From the IMG/VR virus record IMGVR_UViG_2778261545_000003: a stretch of 37,682 nucleotides of DNA, one strand, 5' to 3'. Below are positions 1,054-35,062 of this stretch, one piece after another (positions within the stretch are counted from its first letter, which is position 1; every line of letters starts with the position of its first letter). Both the position numbers and the translations under genes were made by a program. This DNA comes from a virus (Duplodnaviria; Heunggongvirae; Uroviricota; Caudoviricetes). A model generated the notes under the pieces. The model did not search any database, had not been told where the DNA came from, and saw only the letters and a program-made list of their open reading frames with translations.

Positions 1054-1078
1054 AAAAAAGCCCTCATATCAGAGGGCT
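1054..1078 (-). terminator. Intrinsic terminator-like hairpin directly abutting the int start codon
   Basis: On the minus strand AGCCCTC-tgatat-GAGGGCT followed by TTTTTT and then the int ATG; sits between the cargo ORF stop (1140) and int. Confidence 0.5.
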
Positions 1079-1139
1079 AAATTTAACTGTATATTTAAAC
1101 AGTTATCAATGTATGTTTAGGGTGAAATAAACATTGGCC

Positions 1140-2139: not shown

Positions 2140-3078
2140 TTAAATTTCCTTTGAAAAAACGCAACAACATTTTGCGATGGTTGTAATGTCTTCAAGCTTA
2201 CAAACAAAATCAGTTGTATCTGATGTGATTTTTACTTTTCCAACTGGAATTCTTGTTAATTTTCTTAAACTTACTTTACCTTCAATCTCAATCAACCAAC
2301 TACCATCTGAAACATCATCATATTCTGTATCTGCAATAAAGGTTTTTCCTTCTGCGGTAACTCCAATAGGTTTTTTCAATCCGGAAGGTATAAGCGTCTT
2401 GTCAAATGCTAAGTAGCCTTCATCATGTAATTTACCGTCAATGATTGTTTGGTGTTTAAGTTGGGCTACAGAGCTGGAATTATCGATAAATTTGGGGCCA
2501 TTGCCGTTTGTGAGCCAGAGTAATGAAGTTCCTGTTTCAAGAGCGCATTGAATGATCCAATCGCTAGGAAACGTGTCTCGTAAGTACCTGTTTGCTACAG
2601 TGCTTTTTGAAACCTGCAAATGGTTTGCTAGGGCTTGTCGGGTGCTAAAGCCGTAGGCTGCGACTAAGCGATCAATTGCCGCCTTCCCTCCTTTATTAGG
2701 ATTTATGCTGGTCTCGATTGGGAACTTTTGGGCTATTGAGTTAGTTCTATCCAGGTCATCAGATTTGGTATGGGCTAAACGTTCATCATTTAATAAAACT
2801 GAGGATGATTCACAGCTGATTCCCGATGCCAACCAGTCGATAGATGCGCCGGTCTCTATACTGCAAATTATCACCCAGTCAGCAGGAAATGTGTCACGAG
2901 CATACCTGTTAGCCATCGTGCTTTGTGAGATACCCAGATGATTGCAAAATGCTTGCCGCGAAGTAAAACCATACGCAGCAAGTATACGCTCAATTACTTT
3001 CTGTCCCCCACGGTTTTGCATTATTGAAGTTTTTAGACTCTCGCTAATATGGCGAAATGTGTTTTTTTGAGTTGACAT
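2140..3078 (-). CDS. cI: 186-type CI-like immunity repressor with tandemly duplicated N-terminal DNA-binding domain
   Basis: 312-aa ORF divergent from apl/cII. Two about 60-aa repeats (VIERILAAYGFTSRQAFCNHLGISQSTMANRYARDTFPADWVIICSIETGASIDWL and AIDRLVAAYGFSTRQALANHLQVSKSTVANRYLRDTFPSDWIIQCALETGTSLLWL), about 60 percent identical, matching the phage CI-repressor N-terminal HTH pattern. Confidence 0.7.
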   Translation of the reverse strand: MSTQKNTFRHISESLKTSIMQNRGGQKVIERILAAYGFTSRQAFCNHLGISQSTMANRYARDTFPADWVIICSIETGASIDWLASGISCESSSVLLNDERLAHTKSDDLDRTNSIAQKFPIETSINPNKGGKAAIDRLVAAYGFSTRQALANHLQVSKSTVANRYLRDTFPSDWIIQCALETGTSLLWLTNGNGPKFIDNSSSVAQLKHQTIIDGKLHDEGYLAFDKTLIPSGLKKPIGVTAEGKTFIADTEYDDVSDGSWLIEIEGKVSLRKLTRIPVGKVKITSDTTDFVCKLEDITTIAKCCCVFSKEI

Positions 3079-3166: not shown

Positions 3167-3388
3167 ATGACCCCTAACATTTCAATAACTCTGAATACGC
3201 CACATGTCACAATTGAGCGTTATAGCGAACTTACTGGTCTTTCAATCGATACAATTAACGATATGCTGGCTGACGGTCGCATCCCTCGGCATCGCCTTCG
3301 GAAAGACAAGAAAAGAGAAAAGGTGATGATCAACCTTGCTGCTCTTACCGTTGATGCACTTACTGATTGCAATGTTGTATTCAACTAG
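3167..3388 (+). CDS. apl: Apl/Cox-like excisionase and switch regulator (small HTH protein)
   Basis: 73-aa ORF with AGGAG RBS, first gene of the rightward operon divergent from cI; HTH-like segment [24 protein letters not shown]. Confidence 0.6.
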
Positions 3389-3420: not shown

Positions 3421-3930
3421 ATGTTTGATTACCAAGTTTCCAAACATCCACATTTTGATGAAGCCTGTCGTGCATTCGCATTGCGCCACAACCTGGTGCA
3501 ACTGGCAGAACGTGCTGGCATGAATGTGCAGATTCTGCGGAACAAGCTGAACCCATCTCAACCTCATTTATTAACCGCACCAGAAATCTGGCTGCTTACC
3601 GATCTGACTGAAGATTCAACGCTGGTAGATGGTTTTCTGGCACAGATTCACTGCCTGCCATGTGTACCGATTAATGAGGTTGCAAAAGAGAAACTGCCGC
3701 ACTACGTCATGAGCGCAACTGCAGAGATCGGACGTGTTGCAGCAGGTGCGGTATCTGGTGATGTAAAAACTAGTGCCGGTCGTCGTGATGCTATCAGCAG
3801 CATTAACTCTGTAACACGACTGATGGCGCTGGCTGCTGTTTCATTGCAGGCCCGTTTACAGGCTAATCCTGCGATGGCGAGTGCAGTTGATACCGTGACT
3901 GGCCTCGGTGCTTCATTCGGTTTGCTGTGA
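3421..3930 (+). CDS. cII: CII-like lysogeny-establishment activator (186 CII family)
   Basis: About 170 aa from the ATG at 3421 (SD AGGGG); position after apl and size match 186 CII; resemblance to 186 CII is from memory. Confidence 0.6.
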
Positions 3931-4971: not shown

Positions 4972-5825
4972 GCACCATCCTGAAATGGGCGGGAAATAAA
5001 ACCGCCATTATGTCCGAACTGAAAAAACACCTTCCTGCTGGCCCGCGACTGGTTGAACCTTTCGCGGGTTCCTGTGCTGTGATGATGGAGACGGATTACC
5101 CCAGCTATCTTGTTGCGGATATTAATCCTGATTTAATCAACCTCTATAAAAAGGTTGCTGCTGATTGCGAGGCGTTTATATCTCGTGCCAGAGCTTTATT
5201 TGAGGAAGCAAACAGGGAGTTGGCTTATTACAACATAAGGCAGGAGTTTAATTACTCCACTGAAATTACTGATTTCATGAAAGCGGTATATTTCCTGTAT
5301 CTCAATCGTCATGGTTACCGTGGGTTATGTCGTTATAACAAGAGCGGGCATTTCAACATTCCATACGGTAATTATAAAAATCCGTATTTCCCTGAAAAAG
5401 AAATTCGCGCATTTGCAGAGAAAGCCCAGCAAGCAACGTTTATCTGCGCCAGCTTTGATGAAACGCTGGCGATGCTGCAGGTGGGGGATGTGGTGTATTG
5501 CGATCCGCCTTATGACGGTACGTTTTCCGGCTATCACACTAACGGCTTCACTGAAGATGACCAGTATCACCTGGCATCTGTTCTTGAATATCGATCATCA
5601 GAAGGTCATCCAGTCATTGTTTCTAACAGTGACACATCCCTGATCCGTTCGCTGTATCGAAATTTCACTCACCACTACATCAAGGCAAAACGCAGCATCG
5701 GCGTGTCGGCTGGCGAGAGTAAATCTGCAACAGAAATCATCGCTGTTTCTGGGGCGCGCTGCTGGGTGGGATTTGATCCTTCGCGTGGCGTGGATAGTTC
5801 TGCCGTGTACGGAGTGCGTGCATGA
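4968..5825 (+). CDS. dam: DNA adenine methyltransferase (Dam-like, N6-adenine)
   Basis: N-terminal SAM-binding region (ILKWAGNK...PFAGSCAV) and DPPY catalytic motif (VYCDPPYDG); GGAGG RBS before ATG 4968. Confidence 0.85.
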
Positions 5826-8236
5826 GCCATGCTGATATGAACAACTGCAGCGGCTTTAACGAGGCCGCCGCAGCATTCTCATGGAACAGCCCGAAAAAGG
5901 CTATTAACCCTTATCTGGACCTGGCGGAAGTTGCGCCGGTTTCTGCGCTTTCAAACCTGATCACTCTGTACGCTGCCGATAACGAGCAGGAACAACTGCG
6001 CCGCGAGGCACTGAGTGATCAGGTTTGGGAGCGTTATTTCTTTAATGAATCCCGTGATCCTGTCCAGCGCGAAATGGAGCAGGATAAGTTCATTAGCCGG
6101 GCAAAGTTGGCGCATGAGCAGCAGCGTTTTAACCCGGACATGGTCATTCTGGCAGACGTTAACGCCCAGCCTTCCCATATCAGCAGGCCGCTGATGCAAC
6201 GTATTGAATACTTCAGCAGCCTTGGCAGGCCAAAGGCTTATTCCCGCTATTTACGTGAGACGATTAAGCCATGTCTGGAACGGCTGGAGCATGTACGCGA
6301 CAGTCAGCTATCCACTTCTTTTCGCTTTATGGCAAGCCATGAAGGGCTGGACGGCCTGCTGATTCTGCCTGAAATGAGTCAGGATCAGGTGAAACGCCTG
6401 TCCACCCTTGTTGCTGCGCATATGAGCATGTGCCTTGATGCAGCTTGTGGCGATTTGTATGCCACCGATGACGTTAAGCCAGAAGAAATCCGCAAGACAT
6501 GGGAAAAGGTGGCAGCAGAAACCCTGCGACTGGATGTCATACCGCCTGCGTTTGAGCAACTCCGCCGGAAAAGAAACCGCCGTAAACCCGTGCCCTATGA
6601 ACTCATTCCGGGTTCGCTGGCGCGTATGTTGTGCGCCGATTGGTGGTACCGGAAATTATGGAAGATGCGTTGCGAATGGCGGGAAGAGCAGTTGCGTGCT
6701 GTTTGCCTGGTCAGCAAAAAAGCATCTCCCTATGTCAGCTATGAAGCCATGATGCATAAACGTGAGCAGCGCCGTAAGTCGCTGGAGTTTTTCCGTTCTC
6801 ATGAACTGGTGAACGAAGACGGCGACACGCTGGACATGGAGGATGTGGTAAACGCCAGCAGCAGCAACCCTGCGCATCGCCGCAATGAGATGATGGCCTG
6901 TGTTAAAGGTCTGGAGCTTATCGCGGAAATGCGCGGTGACTGCGCCGTTTTCTACACCATCACCTGTCCGTCACGTTTCCATTCCACGCTAAATAACGGC
7001 AGGCCCAACCCGACCTGGACAAATACGACGGTAAGACAAAGCAGTGATTATCTGGTCGGCATGTTTGCTGCATTTCGTAAGGCGATGCACAAAGCCGGAT
7101 TGCGCTGGTATGGCGTGCGGGTGGCTGAGCCGCATCATGACGGTACAGTTCACTGGCACCTGTTGTGTTTTATGCGCAAAAAAGATCGCCGCACCATTAC
7201 TGCTTTGTTGCGTAAGTTTGCCATTCGTGAAGACCGCGAGGAGCTGGGTAATAACACGGGACCACGCTTTAAGTCTGAGCTGATAAACCCGCGCAAAGGT
7301 ACGCCAACAAGCTACATCGCGAAATACATCAGTAAGAACATTGACGGGCGTGGTCTGGCTGGCGAGATCAGCAAGGAAACGGGTAAATCCCTGCGTGATA
7401 ACGCTGAATACGTTAATGCCTGGGCGTCTCTGCATCGTGTTCAGCAATTCCGCTTCTTTGGCATTCCGGGGCGTCAGGCTTACCGTGAACTGCGATTGCT
7501 GGCTGGTCAGGCGGCAAGGCAACAGGGGGACAAAAAAGCAGGTGCGCCGGTACTGGATAACCCGCGCCTTGATGCAATCCTGGCTGCTGCTGATGCTGGT
7601 TGTTTTGCCACCTACATCATGAAGCAGGGCGGCGTACTGGTTCCCCGCAAATATCACCTCATCAGAACTGCTTATGAAATCAACGAAGAACCGACCGCAT
7701 ATGGCGATCACGGTATTCGTATTTATGGCATCTGGTCACCCATTGCAGAGGGCAAGATCTGCACTCATGCGGTGAAGTGGAAAATGGTTCGTAAGGCCGT
7801 TGACGTTCAGGAGGCGGCAGCCGACCAGGGCGCTTGCGCCCCTTGGACTCGTGGCAATAACTGTCCCCTTGCTGAAAATTTGAACCAACAGGAGAAAGAT
7901 AAATCAGCTGATGGGGACACCAGAACGGACATTACCCGCATGGATGACAAGGAGTTGCACGATTACCTGCACAGTATGAGCAAAAAAGAGCGCCGGGAAC
8001 TGGCAGCAAGGTTACGCCTGGTTAAACCGAAACGGCGTAAAGACTACAAACAGCGAATTACAGACCATCAGCGACTGCAGCTCGTCTATGAGCTGAAGTC
8101 CAGAGGATTTGATGGTAGCGAGAAAGAGGTCGATGTACTCCTTCGCGGCGGCAGTATTCCGTCAGGAGCAGGCCTGCGTATCTTCTATCGGAACCAGCGT
8201 TTGCGGGAAGATGATAAGTGGCGGAACCTGTATTAA
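5822..8236 (+). CDS. A: Replication initiation protein A (rolling-circle HUH endonuclease)
   Basis: 804 aa with HUH motif ([10 protein letters not shown]) and paired-tyrosine motif (YIAKYISK) typical of P2 A / phiX174 A initiators; start overlaps dam stop. Confidence 0.9.
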
Positions 8237-8328
8237 TTCCGCGGGCTAACAATTCGTGCTCTTAATAATACCAGGCATATCATGCTGATGAATGTAAAAA
8301 AACGTTTTACATCAGTAAGATTATTATA

Positions 8329-8348
8329 TACTGTAAATATAAACAGTG
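8329..8348 (+). promoter_or_regulatory. LexA box (SOS operator) overlapping the promoter of the tum/dinI-like operon
   Basis: TACTGTAAATATAAACAGTG matches CTGT-N8-ACAG exactly; TTTACA -35-like hexamer at 8306..8311 just upstream. Confidence 0.8.
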
Positions 8349-8389
8349 GTTATGCATACAGTGTTGCTTGTGGTGTCATAGGAGGAAAA

Positions 8390-8578
8390 ATGCAGGACTA
8401 TTTTTTGGAGTCTTTGAAGCTCCAGCGCATTGATTTTTTTCTTAAGCTTGTAGCGGCTAGTGAGTGTAGTGATGAAGAGAAGGGGCTGGCTCTGCAGTGG
8501 GTTTCTGAATTGACTGATGAACTCATGGCAAAGATCAGAATCCACGAATACAGCCGCTCAATGGATGTCATCAGTTGA
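8390..8578 (+). CDS. Small protein in SOS operon (possible Tum-like antirepressor component)
   Basis: 62-aa ORF from the ATG at 8390 with GGAGG RBS, immediately downstream of the LexA box. Confidence 0.4.
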   Translation: MQDYFLESLKLQRIDFFLKLVAASECSDEEKGLALQWVSELTDELMAKIRIHEYSRSMDVIS

Positions 8579-8588
8579 GGTGACTTTT

Positions 8589-8822
8589 ATGCGCATTGAA
8601 ATAATGATCGATAAAGAGCAGAAAATTAGCCAGTCTACCCTGGACGCCCTTGAATCCGAGCTTTACCGCAATCTGCGCCCCCTGTATCCCAAAGCGGTAA
8701 TTCGTATCCGTAAAGGTAGCTCTAATGGTGTGGAACTGACCGGACTGCAACTGGACGAAGAAAGAAAACAAGTGATGAAAATTATGCAGAAGGTGTGGGA
8801 AGACGACAGCTGGCTGCATTAA
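8589..8822 (+). CDS. DinI-family protein
   Basis: 77 aa, MRIEIMIDKEQ...LDALESELYRNLRPLYP...VWEDDSWL resembles E. coli DinI; SD GAGGTGA before ATG 8589. Confidence 0.75.
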   Translation: MRIEIMIDKEQKISQSTLDALESELYRNLRPLYPKAVIRIRKGSSNGVELTGLQLDEERKQVMKIMQKVWEDDSWLH

Positions 8823-8825
8823 GAA

Positions 8826-8868
8826 ACGTTGCTGGCGTCTGAACTTGCTTCTGACGTCAGCAACGTTG
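8826..8868 (+). terminator. Imperfect 15-bp inverted repeat after the dinI-like gene (possible terminator or binding site)
   Basis: AACGTTGCTGGCGTC-N13-GACGTCAGCAACGTT with one mismatch; no strong U-tract. Confidence 0.3.
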
Positions 8869-9088
8869 AACAACTAGTTTAGTGGGGCATTAGTCATGGG
8901 GTAAAATACAGTAACCATTATTTTCACTTCCGCTCAGATTTAACCGAACGTTAGTTTTGCTACGTATGATGGGCTGCAAATTACCTTTTGGGATTTGTGA
9001 TAGATACGAAAATCCTATTAGATGCTTGTTAGACCGGAAGCGCCACTTCGAACGAAAAGTAATGGCCACTTATGCCGGTTTAAAAGCC

Positions 9089-9619
9089 TTAACCTTGTAT
9101 AGTTATTTGAATATTTTCTTCATTAACACCAAAGTATAGGGCTAGCCCTGCTTTTGCCTCCTGAAGTGTTAACGGCTTAACTACATTTTCTTCTTCTTCT
9201 TCGTACTCATCACCCGCTTGATCGACAATCGAATTAGTCGGGGTTAATTTGGGAAGAGCTTTAAATTCCAACTTGTCAGCCTCAATGCCAATGTCTTTGA
9301 GGTTGCGATAAGAAACGGGATTCCGATTGCCATCCCATTGTCCTGGGATGTCAATTTCAGCATAAGAATTGATGTTTATGATCCAGCGTTTAGGGTTTTC
9401 TGGAGCCCTGCTTACTCCCGAGATTCGACCGATCATAAAAGCATGATGATGTTTTGCTTCTTGTGATCCCCAGTCCTTTCTCGAATTTTGTACACAAACT
9501 AAATATTCGTGCTTAGCTGCATGGCTGGCGTCAAGTCTCCATGCTTGGCTTCCCCCTGTGTTCAAAATCTCTGTTAAACCACGAGCAGTAAGTACAGTAA
9601 TACAGTTGGTAGTAGCCAT
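9089..9619 (-). CDS. Hypothetical cargo protein (176 aa) in the variable region between the SOS operon and cos
   Basis: Clean ORF on the opposite strand with acidic stretch EYEEEEEN; AT-rich; no recognisable motif. Confidence 0.55.
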   Translation of the reverse strand: MATTNCITVLTARGLTEILNTGGSQAWRLDASHAAKHEYLVCVQNSRKDWGSQEAKHHHAFMIGRISGVSRAPENPKRWIININSYAEIDIPGQWDGNRNPVSYRNLKDIGIEADKLEFKALPKLTPTNSIVDQAGDEYEEEEENVVKPLTLQEAKAGLALYFGVNEENIQITIQG

Positions 9620-9936
9620 TGAATTGTGACCCCGTCTTTTTTAGAGAAATACTGTTGATGAATGTAGTTTACGTATTTTTTTATGGAGTAGTCAAGTTAG
9701 TATTATGCTCATTATTGGCTGTTTGTTGAGTGTTATGAGTTGGTACTTTGTGTAGTACCTCTTGATTTATGAGGATTAAATCTAAGTTATGACAAAGGGA
9801 GGCAGGGGGAACGCGCAGCGCAAGGTGGACAGGAGGCCATAAGGACTCACTTGAAGTAAGAAAAGATCGATAAAGCAACAATGCATGTCTATGCCGCATG
9901 AATTCGCATGATCGTTTGAGGATCGTTTTAGTTGAG

Positions 9937-9964
9937 GCCCGCCAGGAATGGCGGGCTTTTGTTT
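9937..9964 (+). terminator. Intrinsic terminator (GC hairpin plus T-tract) with no obvious upstream plus-strand gene
   Basis: GCCCGCC-aggaat-GGCGGGC followed by TTTTGTTT. Confidence 0.5.
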
Positions 9965-10005
9965 ATGTCATGCAAGTGCATGAAAACCACTACATAAAGC
10001 GGGCA

Positions 10006-10024
10006 GGCGTGGCGGGGATACGAG
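10006..10024. other. Candidate cos (cohesive end) site
   Basis: GGCGTGGCGGGGATACGAG resembles the 19-nt P2/186 cohesive ends as I recall them (P2 GGCGAGGCGGGGAAAGCAC), matching at 14 of 19 positions; lies in a GC-rich patch of an otherwise AT-rich intergenic region. Confidence 0.4.
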
Positions 10025-10176
10025 CGCGCGTTAAGCCATATAAGAGTTATATATTGATTTGATTGCTGGACATACATACAGTATCGCTCTATCATCTAAT
10101 AAATCTTAGGGTATTTGACAATGTTTGGATAAAATGGAACCTAACTTATTCATAATCCGCTAAACAGGGATGTCAG

Positions 10177-11091
10177 ATGCCATACCAATTGGTAGAGCTT
10201 AGCCCCGTAGCTAACGATCTTGAACAGTTAGGAACCAAAGAGAAGTTTTGGTTCTATTTCTCCGATGACACTGTAAATTTGCAGTTGTTTAAGTACTCTA
10301 GGCCAGGTACTGGCGAGCATTGGTCTGAAAAGTGTGCTGCTGAGTTATGTCATTTGCTTAACATTCCACATGCTAGCTATGATTTGGCGCGATACAATGG
10401 TCGATTCGGTGTGGTGACTCAGAATATCATTCCATCTGGTTTCCGGATGGTAATGGGAAATGAAGTGCTTCACAGTTCGACATTCGATTATCCTGGGCCT
10501 TTACAAGCCGGGGAAAAGCCGGTAAGGGTCAGAGAACACACTGTCACAAGGGTCTTGGGTTGTTTAGATAGGGAATCTATCAAGCCTCCTCCGAGTGTAT
10601 ATGATCTAACCGGGCTAAATGCAGCAGATGTATTTTGTGGATATTTGATGCTCGATGCACTTGTGAGTAATCAAGATCGCCACCATGAAAATTGGGCAAT
10701 CATGCTTAACAATGAAACTGGTGAGCAGTTTTTGTGTCCAACATACGATCATGCCGCTAGTTTAGGAAGGGAGATGTTAGATGATGAGCGTAACGAACGG
10801 CTTAATACTAAAGATAAAAATCGACAAATCCCATGTTTTGTAAGAAAAGCTCGCTCTGAGCTATTCAAAGCAAAAACTGATAAAAAGCCCTTGCTGACTG
10901 TTGAAGCATTTCAACATGCAGTTGAAGGGAGAGTTGCCGCTCGCGACCATTGGTTAGGTAAGTTGAGCGTTTTAACAGAAGATTCCATTACAGATGTGTT
11001 TAACCAAGTGCCTTCATCGTGTATATCCGACAGTGCACGTAGATTTGCAACGTTAATGGTAATGGAAAATCGCAGAAGGTTACTAGAATGA
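10177..11091 (+). CDS. HipA-like / PI3-4K-like small Ser/Thr kinase (cargo)
   Basis: 304 aa; catalytic-loop-like LVSNQDRHHENWAIM (DRH..N) and downstream YDHAASLG (metal-binding Asp), plus N-terminal LGTKEKFW; AGGGA RBS; stop overlaps the next gene by 4 nt. Confidence 0.55.
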   Translation: MPYQLVELSPVANDLEQLGTKEKFWFYFSDDTVNLQLFKYSRPGTGEHWSEKCAAELCHLLNIPHASYDLARYNGRFGVVTQNIIPSGFRMVMGNEVLHSSTFDYPGPLQAGEKPVRVREHTVTRVLGCLDRESIKPPPSVYDLTGLNAADVFCGYLMLDALVSNQDRHHENWAIMLNNETGEQFLCPTYDHAASLGREMLDDERNERLNTKDKNRQIPCFVRKARSELFKAKTDKKPLLTVEAFQHAVEGRVAARDHWLGKLSVLTEDSITDVFNQVPSSCISDSARRFATLMVMENRRRLLE

Positions 11092-11828
11092 CTAATACAA
11101 ACTCCGTTTACGTCGCATGGCAGGCACCAGATACCAGAGACTGGCATGTTGTTGGTAACTTGCAAGAGCGCAAATCGGGGTATGTTTTCAGGTATACCAA
11201 AGGTGCTCTTAAATCTTCTAAATTTACAAAGTTTAGCGGCATGAGTGATGTTCGTGAAACTTATGTATCGGAAGAATTGTTTCCTCTTTTTAAAAATCGC
11301 CTTTTATCACCGAGACGTCCAGAGTATCCGAGTTTCATTAAATGGCTTGGATTTGAAGAAGATAAGGTAAATCCTATCGATATTCTTGCTCGCTCGGGAG
11401 GCTTACGAAGCACTGATCAGCTGCAGATTTTCAAAAAAATTGATTTTGATTCTGATGGTAACTTTGAGCATTTTTTCTTCTTACATGGACTTGGTTACTT
11501 GAATAGCTTAGCTAATGCTCGTGTATCTGAATTGAAACCGGGGCAAATTTTGCGTCTTTGCTTGGATCTTCAAAATGAATACGATGGGGATGCTGTTGTC
11601 GTTCGTGCAGATAAACCAGCTGAAATCGTTGGTTACTGCCCTAGGTATTTAAGTAATGACATCAAGAAGATGTTATTGGATGATCCAAAATCAATCACTT
11701 TAACGGTCGAAAAGATTAGCGATGATGCTCCTCATAACTATCGGTTATTATGTAAATTATCAGGGGTACTAAGCCAAGCCTGTCAATCGACGCTGATTCC
11801 TCAAGATGAGTTTGAACCTATTGAGTAA
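11088..11828 (+). CDS. Protein with C-terminal HIRAN-like domain (cargo, partner of the kinase)
   Basis: 246 aa; C-terminal LQNEYDGDAVVVRADKPAEIVGYCPRYLSNDIKKMLLD fits the HIRAN pattern (N.YD.nAi.V...........lGY.PR..........L); translationally coupled to the upstream kinase gene. Confidence 0.5.
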   Translation: MTNTNSVYVAWQAPDTRDWHVVGNLQERKSGYVFRYTKGALKSSKFTKFSGMSDVRETYVSEELFPLFKNRLLSPRRPEYPSFIKWLGFEEDKVNPIDILARSGGLRSTDQLQIFKKIDFDSDGNFEHFFFLHGLGYLNSLANARVSELKPGQILRLCLDLQNEYDGDAVVVRADKPAEIVGYCPRYLSNDIKKMLLDDPKSITLTVEKISDDAPHNYRLLCKLSGVLSQACQSTLIPQDEFEPIE

Positions 11829-34827: not shown

Positions 34828-34912
34828 CGCTGCCGCCATTTTGTCGCCATCGTTAAAAAACAGTGCTTCTAACATCATGATTTTAAACAGCTTAAATTTC
34901 AGGCAACAAAAA

Positions 34913-34950
34913 ACCCATCAACCTTGAACCGAAATGGCGGGGTTGATGGG
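34913..34950 (-). terminator. Stem-loop with T-tract on minus strand, probably the ybjL terminator (host side of the junction)
   Basis: CCCATCAACC-N18-GGTTGATGGG with a T-run (TTTTTTGTTG) following on the minus strand, about 110 nt downstream of the ybjL stop. Confidence 0.45.
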
Positions 34951-35062
34951 CTCCACAAAATGGGGACATCAAAGAAAAGCAGTGGCATTAATTAAGACTG
35001 ATGCCCTGCGGAAAAGTTCTGCGGTTGTGCAAAAAAATTTCATTTTCAGGGCAACTTCAGTT

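Follow-up and report, generated by a model that had tools for sequence, protein, structure and literature searches.

A segment of prophage DNA directly behind a replication gene is very probably the SOS operon of a Fels-2-like, P2-family prophage, with a LexA-repressed promoter, a tum antirepressor gene, and a gene for a DinI-like protein. The operon lies in a viral sequence of 37,682 nucleotides, which we refer to as the window. SOS induction modules of this kind are already known from phages 186, PSP3, and Fels-2 and from DuoHS, a prophage of E. coli HS. The prophage of the window is integrated adjoining rybB/ybjL, and the host small RNA RybB (34905-34983) is the sole Rfam match in the whole window; the same search returned no match in the SOS operon region. 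Replication gene A (PF05840, E=1e-126) ends at 8236, directly upstream of the intergenic region that contains the SOS elements. The module was found in 1125 of 5426 complete E. coli genomes. We established the sequence elements, their conservation, the identity of the genes to those of DuoHS and Fels-2, and the type of the repressor directly in this analysis. A first-pass annotation had placed a LexA box, a promoter-like region, a 62-aa ORF, and a DinI-family gene here, and on reading the sequence we found every one of these positions to be correct to the base. The start it gave to the module, 8306, is the first base of the -35-like hexamer TTTACA.

Table 1. Features of the SOS operon and its predicted target (positions in the window; a dot marks an element given without a strand)
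Feature	Position	Strand	Evidence or remark
186-family CI immunity repressor, 312 aa	2140..3078	-	PF07022 x2, PF16452
A-tract before the -35	~8296-8302		
-35 hexamer TTTACA of the tum promoter	8306..8311	+	sequence; 31 related loci; 186 p95
LexA box 1, TACTGTAAATATAAACAGTG	8329..8348	.	exact CTGT-N8-ACAG core, weight matrix, conservation
Candidate LexA box 2, CAGTGGTTATGCATACAGTG	8344..8363	.	overlaps box 1; absent from the first-pass annotation
Shine-Dalgarno sequence AGGAGG of the small ORF	8380..8385	+	sequence reading
tum (tumA-type) antirepressor gene, 62 aa	8390..8578	+	DuoHS/Fels-2 identity, phrog_698
DinI-like gene, tumB type, 77 aa	8589..8822	+	PF06183, phrog_189, PSP3 TumB
Conserved stem-loop closing the operon	8825..8867	+	folding energy, covariation

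The promoter has a recognizable -35 hexamer, and 17 nt after it comes the likely -10, TACTGT, which is made up of the first six bases of LexA box 1. In 31 related loci, TTTACA or a close variant stands at a fixed distance from CTGT, about 19 nt ahead of it. The -10 is too weak for a generic promoter scan of positions 8100-9200, which did not report a sigma-70 site. In phage 186, the annotated promoter p95 has an equal layout, TTCACA-18-TACTGT compared to TTTACA-17-TACTGT in the window, and its LexA box, which the 186 record marks as "putative," likewise begins at the -10. The LexA box of the window overlaps the -10, is intergenic, and lies just downstream of gene A, as in a 186-like Tum SOS operon.

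One check proposed in the first-pass annotation was to score the LexA box with a position weight matrix. We built such a matrix from 19 E. coli sites, which themselves score 13.6-27.0 bits. Box 1 scores 23.9 bits, well above the best site in 100 random windows (16.1 bits). The window has two exact copies of the core CTGT-N8-ACAG, with 0.36 expected. TA-rich palindromes are frequent in AT-rich intergenic DNA, and taken together with the empty promoter scan, this could mean that the LexA-like sequence is a chance palindrome and that the promoter is constitutive or otherwise controlled. However, the score is far above that of all random windows, and the CTG/CAG cores are conserved in the 31 loci despite a variable spacer. 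In these loci, which come from different species, every intact tum homologue has a LexA box 38-95 nt before it, and the single locus with a truncated tum gene has a decayed box. Furthermore, DuoHS, whose box 1 and -35 are identical to those of the window, cannot be induced in a lexA(Ind-) host. We regard the probability of a chance palindrome as negligible.

The window contains a second candidate LexA box that shares its first bases with the end of box 1. At 11.9 bits, it is the fifth-best site of the window by weight matrix, and a site as strong as this is expected 0.26 times per random window. The corresponding site scores 16-21 bits in most Enterobacteriaceae relatives and 17.2 bits in DuoHS. 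Some 24 loci conserve the motif TGGATATATATACAGT, which is lacking in the Pantoea, Erwinia, and Tatumella loci. The 16-nt cores of the two boxes overlap by one base (CTGT-N8-nCAG/TGG-N9-ACAG), which is the colicin-type arrangement. We compared the window with the colicin plasmid sequences themselves: colicin E1-type and colicin Y promoters have the layout CTGT-N8-CCAGTGGTTAT-N3-TACAGTA, as in the window, and the operator sequences are nearly alike, CTGTAAATATAAACAGTGGTTATGCATACAGT in the window versus CTGTACATAAAACCAGTGGTTATGTATACAGT in colicin Y. Binding of two LexA dimers, which prevents untimely lethal expression, has been reported for colicin operators (PMC2994835). Judging from the sequence, boxes 1 and 2 probably form a colicin-type double SOS operator that two LexA dimers would occupy. 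Elsewhere in the window, two further strong LexA boxes are present, one upstream of int (1085-1104) and the other upstream of the hipIN (PDC-M03) kinase module (10064-10083).

The small ORF behind this operator starts with ATG at 8390 and ends with TGA at 8576-8578. AGGAGG is kept 4-7 nt before the ATG in all loci compared. A 98-aa version from the in-frame ATG at 8282 was rejected, since translation would begin ahead of the promoter and the conserved Shine-Dalgarno sequence belongs to the ATG at 8390. The 62-aa protein has 97% identity to DuoHS Tum (ECHS_RS04495) and 95% identity to STM2728 of Fels-2, and the published primers for the DuoHS deletion match the boundaries of the small ORF. In DuoHS, either an in-frame deletion of tum or a lexA(Ind-) host abolishes induction by mitomycin C (PMC12055606, Nat Microbiol 2025). 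In Fels-2 and PSP3, tum is split by a stop codon, and the upstream gene has antirepressor activity (Lemire et al. 2011). The first-pass annotation had likened the region to the LexA-repressed antirepressor operon of 186; the identity to DuoHS Tum, the identical box 1, the tumA/tumB pair of PSP3, and the work of Lemire et al. (2011) all support this comparison.

The first product of the operon is thus a homologue of Tum/TumA, close to the proteins of DuoHS and Fels-2 and remote from that of 186. BLASTP aligned the 62-aa ORF with neither 186 Tum nor PSP3 TumA, and the ORF has no match in Pfam, NCBIfam, or PADLOC. It matches phrog_698 at E=7e-37, and so does the N-terminal half of 186 Tum, at E=5.9e-6; the ORF also matches phrog_1993 at E=0.003. 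A direct comparison of the ORF with the N-terminal half of 186 Tum by hhalign gave E=2.9e-4 and a probability of 41% over columns 4-43. These profile-level matches, modest in strength, suggest a remote homology between the two. The protein is acidic (pI 4.6), and an AlphaFold2 model (pLDDT 90) has helices at residues 2-23 and 28-61, a predicted two-helix hairpin; Foldseek of this model against the PDB found generic helical hairpins only (E>0.6), which say nothing about mechanism.

The second gene runs from ATG at 8589 to TAA at 8820-8822, and its Shine-Dalgarno sequence, GAGGTG (8577-8582), overlaps the stop codon of tum. Residues 14-76 of the product match the Pfam DinI family (PF06183, E=7e-23), and the protein matches phrog_189, "RecA filament binding protein DinI," at E=3e-29. 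It is 99% identical to its DuoHS counterpart and 77% identical to PSP3 TumB, and it shares 40% identity with the DinI-like C-terminal half of 186 Tum (residues 71-145). Its C terminus, QKVWEDDSW, aligns with QEVWEDESW of 186 Tum, a conserved acidic helix containing tryptophan. The window therefore has a DinI-like moiety of the kind found fused to Tum or, as here, immediately downstream of it. An orthologue of host DinI was considered and rejected: NCBIfam PRK10597 gives 41.8 bits, below its cut-off of 111 bits.

Which of the two products is the inducer? The DinI domain is the only part of the operon products with a curated family match, and shorter 186 Tum products consisting of the DinI-like part only are annotated as modulating SOS induction. 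These points would fit a DinI-like protein that is the effective inducer, for example by stabilizing RecA filaments, with the 62-aa ORF as a minor accessory or a leader peptide. The genetic data from DuoHS argue against it, since the in-frame tum deletion keeps the DinI-like gene and its ribosome-binding site and yet the prophage is not inducible. In addition, about 14 of 33 related loci have an intact LexA box and tum and no DinI-like gene downstream, and RecA would find no autocleavage domain in the CI repressor of the window. In Gifsy prophages, nonpolar dinI deletions had no measurable effect on induction (Lemire et al. 2011). We give induction by the DinI-like protein very little credence. 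Because the gene is missing from so many loci and is intact in the noninducible DuoHS deletion, the DinI-like gene appears to be a dispensable, optional accessory, and given the Gifsy deletions, the role of its product is a proposed one. 186 Tum is a fusion of two separable functions, and in the window the small ORF carries the switch. The first-pass annotation had suggested that the antirepressor function may be split across two ORFs, or that the DinI-like protein may modulate RecA. The gene arrangement is indeed split, as in PSP3 and Fels-2, but the antirepressor activity is confined to the small ORF and not shared.

A stem-loop with a minimum free energy of about -30 kcal/mol (z=-3.2) closes the operon. 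Across 13 loci, compensatory double changes affect 6 of the 17 pairs in its consensus. The structure is terminator-like but lacks the U-tract of a classical intrinsic terminator; an invariant GAACAAC follows it. The ORF that comes next (9089-9619) lies on the other strand.

The predicted target of Tum is the CI repressor of the prophage. In this protein, Pfam finds two copies of Phage_CI_repr (PF07022, E=8e-55), which give it two HTH domains in tandem at the N terminus, and Phage_CI_C (PF16452) as its single C-terminal domain; no Peptidase_S24 match was found at E<=0.01. It is a 186-family CI without a RecA-dependent autocleavage domain. Induction through lambda-type, RecA-stimulated autocleavage of the repressor was excluded on the grounds that CI has no S24 domain. 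The identity of this CI is 35% to CI of 186, 46% to that of DuoHS, and 39% to that of Fels-2. It is collinear with the 286-aa two-HTH CI of PSP3, to which it is 29% identical.

The immunity region is a mosaic when compared with the SOS module. Strain A41 has an SOS module that is 100% identical next to a CI that is 41% identical, and a CI of the window type is present in 24 of the 5426 genomes, compared to 1125 for the module. This raises the question of whether the switch works in this prophage. A generic Tum might fail on a two-HTH CI, leaving the module as a recombinational leftover or as an inducer of co-resident prophages only; the extra HTH, and an identity of just 46% to the CI on which DuoHS Tum works, are in line with such a failure. 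However, PSP3 also has a two-HTH CI, and it is annotated as UV inducible through tumA. Moreover, a diverged lineage has retained the two-HTH CI, with 77% identity, and the operator elements and both ORFs are all intact in the window. We consider an inactive switch unlikely and favor Tum acting on the CI of the window.

Tum is 64-100% identical between loci, and the linked CI is 31-99% identical; the two do not covary (Spearman, -0.004), while Tum identity tracks that of the neighbouring gene A (rho 0.71). This is unexpected for a specific binding pair and suggests that Tum is a generalist antirepressor. The same data, and the A41 combination of an identical module with a distant CI, would also be obtained if Tum acted indirectly, through a third party that is itself conserved (a host factor, for example, or a different phage regulator), in which case coevolution with CI would not be needed. 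The 186 system speaks against this: the record of the phage annotates Tum as a sequestering inhibitor of CI DNA binding, and the protein has been used experimentally in this capacity (PMC7708051). The N-terminal domain of CI, which is much better conserved than the rest (median of 67% versus 34%), offers a conserved surface on CI itself. Gifsy antirepressors, in turn, are known to act in trans on several repressors. A third-party target thus seems to us quite improbable, and CI remains the preferred one. We tentatively propose, as a possibility that may well prove wrong, that the near-invariant Tum is a generalist "master key" for the conserved N-terminal HTH of otherwise divergent 186-family CI proteins, including the two-HTH type, and could induce P2-like prophages of different immunity that reside in the same cell. 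Under this proposal, the switch would also be one of three LexA-operated units: tum-dinI behind its double operator, an SOS-inducible int promoter, and the hipIN/PDC-M03 kinase module.

The following mechanism can be proposed. In an undamaged lysogen, LexA would sit on the operator, with box 1 over the -10 and box 2 over the transcript start. Two LexA dimers probably bind there, as they do on colicin promoters, and would keep the promoter tightly shut. Upon DNA damage, active RecA would lead to self-cleavage of LexA, and the promoter would fire. A single short mRNA ending at the stem-loop would encode both proteins. Tum would then bind the noncleavable 186-family CI stoichiometrically, presumably by direct contact in the case of the window's CI, and release the lytic promoter. 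With CI neutralized, Apl/Cox, CII, replication protein A, and the late genes would be expressed. The dependence of induction on tum and on a cleavable LexA is taken by analogy from DuoHS, and the inhibition of CI DNA binding by Tum is taken from 186. The DinI-like protein, translationally coupled to Tum, may act on RecA filaments, tuning the strength or duration of the SOS response, and would not be needed for the switch.

Prophages of a class that is very common in E. coli, Salmonella, and Klebsiella exit the chromosome at a time set by this module, and about one complete E. coli genome in five has a related copy. As a switch, the module is textbook biology of 186 and Fels-2. RefSeq and most databases call the tum-type gene a "hypothetical protein," so that transferring the Tum annotation is of practical use. 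Of modest interest are the by-products of the analysis: the colicin-like double LexA operator, the occurrence of one antirepressor sequence across many immunity types, and the conserved LexA boxes before int and before a candidate defence kinase module.

DuoHS and Fels-2 (STM2728, STM2726.1) are the known systems most like the window in gene sequence. Their module likewise follows replication gene A, and DuoHS is inserted at the same site as the prophage of the window, between rcdA and ybjL. They differ in the cargo downstream of the module and in their CI proteins, of 189 aa and 210 aa, respectively, versus the 312-aa two-HTH repressor of the window. PSP3 has the antirepressor and DinI-like genes split in the same manner, behind a LexA box after gene A; its record annotates the pair as tumA ("UV induction of prophage") and tumB, and its CI also carries two tandem PF07022 domains. 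PSP3 TumA, with 60 aa, belongs to phrog_1993, whereas the ORF of the window belongs to phrog_698. The p95-tum operon of 186 has the same genomic position, a similar -35, a 186-family CI, and a product that inhibits CI. In 186, however, both parts are fused into one 146-aa Tum with internal starts, compared to two ORFs in the window, and the operon reads into orf97 past a partial terminator. PSP3 and 186 each have a single LexA box, versus two in the window. Colicin operons resemble the window in the operator and differ in their unrelated downstream genes and in promoters that have additional regulation. Finally, in Gifsy-1, -2, and -3 (gfoA, gftA, and gfhA), a LexA box controls the genes for a DinI homologue and a small antirepressor, the repressor stays uncleaved, and the antirepressors can act in trans on other prophages. 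Unlike the operon of the window, these have dinI first, belong to lambdoid phages, and encode an antirepressor and a repressor of unrelated families.

The small open reading frame (ORF) in front of the DinI-like gene is, judging from its sequence, the Fels-2-lineage antirepressor gene tum (tumA type). Its product shares 97% identity with ECHS_RS04495 of DuoHS, the prophage of E. coli HS, and 95% with STM2728 of Fels-2, which is likewise followed by a DinI-family gene. The published primers for the in-frame tum deletion in DuoHS match the window exactly at the stop side of the ORF and with one mismatch at the start side. In DuoHS, this deletion abolishes mitomycin C-induced lysis and virion formation, and so does a non-cleavable lexA(Ind-) allele (PMC12055606). 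The relation to the biochemically studied 186 Tum is remote. BLASTP found no match of the small ORF to 186 Tum or PSP3 TumA. The first 70 residues of 186 Tum match phrog_698, the family of the small ORF (E=5.9e-6, residues 6-44 against 6-44), both proteins match phrog_8554 and phrog_1993, and hhalign aligns residues 4-43 of each (E=2.9e-4). The small protein is acidic (pI 4.6) and is predicted by AlphaFold2 to form a two-helix hairpin (pLDDT 90); a structure search with this model returned generic hairpins only.

The LexA box, small ORF and DinI-family gene described in the first-pass annotation are all present where it had placed them. We scored LexA sites with an approximate weight matrix built on 19 E. 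coli sites. The box in front of tum (box 1) reaches 23.9 bits, which falls among the scores of the training sites themselves (13.6-27.0), and the top site across 100 random windows was 16.1 bits. The exact core CTGT-N8-ACAG occurs twice in the window, with 0.36 expected. Box 1 is not a chance palindrome. The proposed promoter-like region has the layout of the annotated p95 of 186 (TTCACA-18-TACTGT, with the LexA site beginning at -10); a generic promoter scanner gave no match for the small-ORF promoter. We then compared 33 loci from different species, each encoding a relative of the small ORF. A CTG-N10-CAG box lies 38-95 nt 5′ of the ATG in every intact copy, with varying spacer bases, and the -35 hexamer and Shine-Dalgarno sequence are likewise kept. 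A single locus, L034 of Siccibacter turicensis (at about 9830-10060 of that locus), has a truncated ORF: just 20 codons of tum are left, and its LexA box has decayed into GCTGTGTATATAAGTATTTG. This locus is a natural control in which box and gene were lost together.

Nearly all of a P2-family prophage lies in the window, together with a little host DNA. Its insertion site and gene order are the same as those of DuoHS, which lies between rcdA and ybjL. Between cI and int is a low-GC (31-37%) cargo gene; its 329-aa product has coiled-coil and membrane-like segments, belongs to phrog_2628 (function unknown), shows weak matches to DUF2207_C and a crescentin rod domain, and has no match in PADLOC. 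The variable region past the SOS operon carries a 176-aa ORF (phrog_37247, function unknown). Further on, a 130-bp segment is 81-95% identical in >1400 E. coli genomes irrespective of the cargo that follows, and contains a terminator-like hairpin; it is probably a boundary of the P2 cargo hotspot.

Features of the prophage and its SOS operon, with positions in the window
Feature	Position	Strand	Remarks
Integrase gene (int)	1-1053	minus	
Hairpin with T-run	1058-1078		GC-rich; abuts int ATG
LexA box AACTGTATATTTAAACAGTT	1085-1104		25.3 bits, best in window; about 30 nt upstream of int start codon
Cargo gene	1140-2129	minus	
186-type immunity region	after int		cI, Cox/Apl-like gene, CII-like gene
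cI	2140-3078	minus	
Cox/Apl-like gene	3167-3388		
CII-like gene	about 3421-3930		
gpA replication endonuclease gene	5822-8236		PF05840, E=1e-126
P2-type structural genes	after gpA gene		
tum promoter	-35 at 8306-8311		TTTACA, 17 nt, TACTGT; resembles 186 p95
LexA box 1, TACTGTAAATATAAACAGTG	8329-8348		20 bp
LexA-like box 2, CAGTGGTTATGCATACAGTG	8344-8363		overlaps box 1
tum (small ORF)	8390-8578		62 aa; ATG to TGA; AGGAGG in front
DinI-like gene	8589-8822		77 aa, from ATG; PF06183, E=7e-23
Stem-loop closing operon	8825-8867		17 pairs, 6 with compensatory changes, 13 loci
ORF, phrog_37247	9089-9619	minus	
Conserved 130-bp segment	within 9900-10030		
Terminator-like hairpin	about 9936-9960		
LexA box TGCTGGACATACATACAGTA	10064-10083		22.5 bits; box start 113 nt upstream of kinase ATG
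HipA-like kinase and HIRAN-domain genes	10177-11828		304 aa and 246 aa
Host sRNA RybB	34905-34983	minus	right end; marks host junction
ybjL-like gene	right end of window		

The repressor explains the need for an antirepressor. CI (312 aa) has two tandem PF07022 (Phage_CI_repr) helix-turn-helix (HTH) domains, at about residues 23-86 and 130-196, and one C-terminal PF16452 (Phage_CI_C) domain. No S24 protease domain was found in CI, and therefore RecA-stimulated self-cleavage cannot inactivate it and an antirepressor is needed, as in 186. Tum of 186 is described as an inhibitor of DNA binding by CI that works through sequestration (186 record; PMC7708051). By analogy, the most likely mechanism is that LexA would hold the tum promoter shut until DNA damage removes it; Tum would then be produced and titrate CI, and the lytic promoter would open. 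Most relatives have a single HTH domain and 189-218 aa; of 5426 complete E. coli genomes, 24 carry the two-HTH type of the window. PSP3 CI (286 aa) is built in the same way, and strain S3 carries a version that is 77% identical to the window CI and keeps both HTH domains. These comparisons argue that the two-HTH arrangement is real and under selection.

Pairwise comparison across 23 loci indicates that Tum and CI do not co-evolve. Tum proteins share a median identity of 89% (range 64-100), which follows that of the neighboring gene A (Spearman 0.71); for CI the median is 45% (range 31-99), with no correlation to Tum identity (rho -0.004). Tum is at least 95% identical in 48 locus pairs, and in 33 of these the CI proteins are <55% identical. 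In strain A41 the SOS module is 100% identical to that of the window and the adjoining CI 41% identical, and Fels-2 and DuoHS, for each of which SOS induction has been reported, share 97% identity in Tum and 41% in CI. The N-terminal domain of CI is far better kept than the C-terminal part (median 67% versus 34%). We infer that Tum recognizes the conserved CI N-terminal domain and may be a generalist antirepressor; the data also point to free recombination of immunity and SOS modules. A generalist Tum, if true, would allow prophages that differ in immunity to cross-induce one another, an effect demonstrated for the Gifsy antirepressors (Lemire et al. 2011).

The first-pass annotation did not note box 2. 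Its counterpart, TGGATATATATACAGT, is kept in about 24 loci at 16-21 bits; the DuoHS copy scores 17.2 bits but the window copy only 11.9. The Pantoea, Erwinia and Tatumella loci lack box 2, as do 186 and PSP3. A 48-nt query spanning the double operator matched >1000 small Col-type plasmids. The stretch that it matches in pCol-Let (colicin Y), and likewise in a ColE1-type plasmid, is a double SOS box close to the promoter, CTGT-N8-CCAGTGGTTAT-N3-TACAGTA. Such double boxes reportedly bind two LexA dimers and prevent untimely lethal expression (PMC2994835). An operator that represses very tightly and fires late would suit a gene whose expression is lethal to the host.

The DinI-like ORF shares 77% identity with PSP3 TumB and 40% with residues 71-145 of 186 Tum. 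With a Shine-Dalgarno sequence that overlaps the stop codon of tum, it is likely co-translated with Tum; the stem-loop behind it lacks a U-tract and may either end the transcript or stabilize it. Family membership suggests that the protein acts on RecA filaments. It is not essential to the switch: the gene is missing in about 14 of the 33 loci, which retain box and tum, and is still present in the non-inducible DuoHS tum deletion. Deleting dinI from Gifsy prophages made no measurable difference (Lemire et al. 2011).

Two further strong LexA boxes lie outside the main finding and may merit separate attention. The one at int may form an SOS-inducible int promoter. It is located downstream of the low-GC cargo gene and, read on the int strand, immediately precedes the GC-rich hairpin; equivalents occur in DuoHS (L002:18335), in three other related loci (L004, L018 and L036) and in strain S3, all with cargo between cI and int; the box is absent in about 17 loci where int abuts cI. 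The other precedes the HipA-like kinase and HIRAN-domain genes, which are the PADLOC candidate defense system PDC-M03 A+B (E=2e-122 and 7e-93), a module of the hipIN type (Gerdes et al. 2021). We surveyed the IMG/VR loci whose upstream sequence was usable, and one chromosomal homologue that lies in a different context. Each kinase homologue with 67-100% identity is preceded, at -109 to -133, by a LexA box of 16.6-25.1 bits whose spacer varies; homologues with 56-58% identity have no LexA box upstream. This pattern suggests that the PDC-M03/hipIN kinase/defense module is LexA controlled; the literature examined on hipIN and P2 hotspots makes no mention of LexA.

The SOS module is widespread, in 1125 of 5426 complete E. 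coli genomes and in 67 phage records, mostly of Klebsiella, Salmonella and Escherichia, and its tum is almost always annotated "hypothetical protein." By sequence, the element is nearly identical to experimentally characterized copies and therefore already known. The suggested 186-style antirepressor operon is supported, with one refinement: each of the two ORFs has a separable function of its own, and no single function is shared between them. In Fels-2 and PSP3, a stop codon splits the 186 tum reading frame in two, the upstream gene having antirepressor activity and the downstream one being a DinI homologue (Lemire et al. 2011). The PSP3 GenBank record accordingly lists tumA ("similar to 5' end 186 tum; UV induction of prophage") and tumB, and the window element has every feature of the 186/PSP3/Fels-2 Tum SOS operon that can be checked in sequence.
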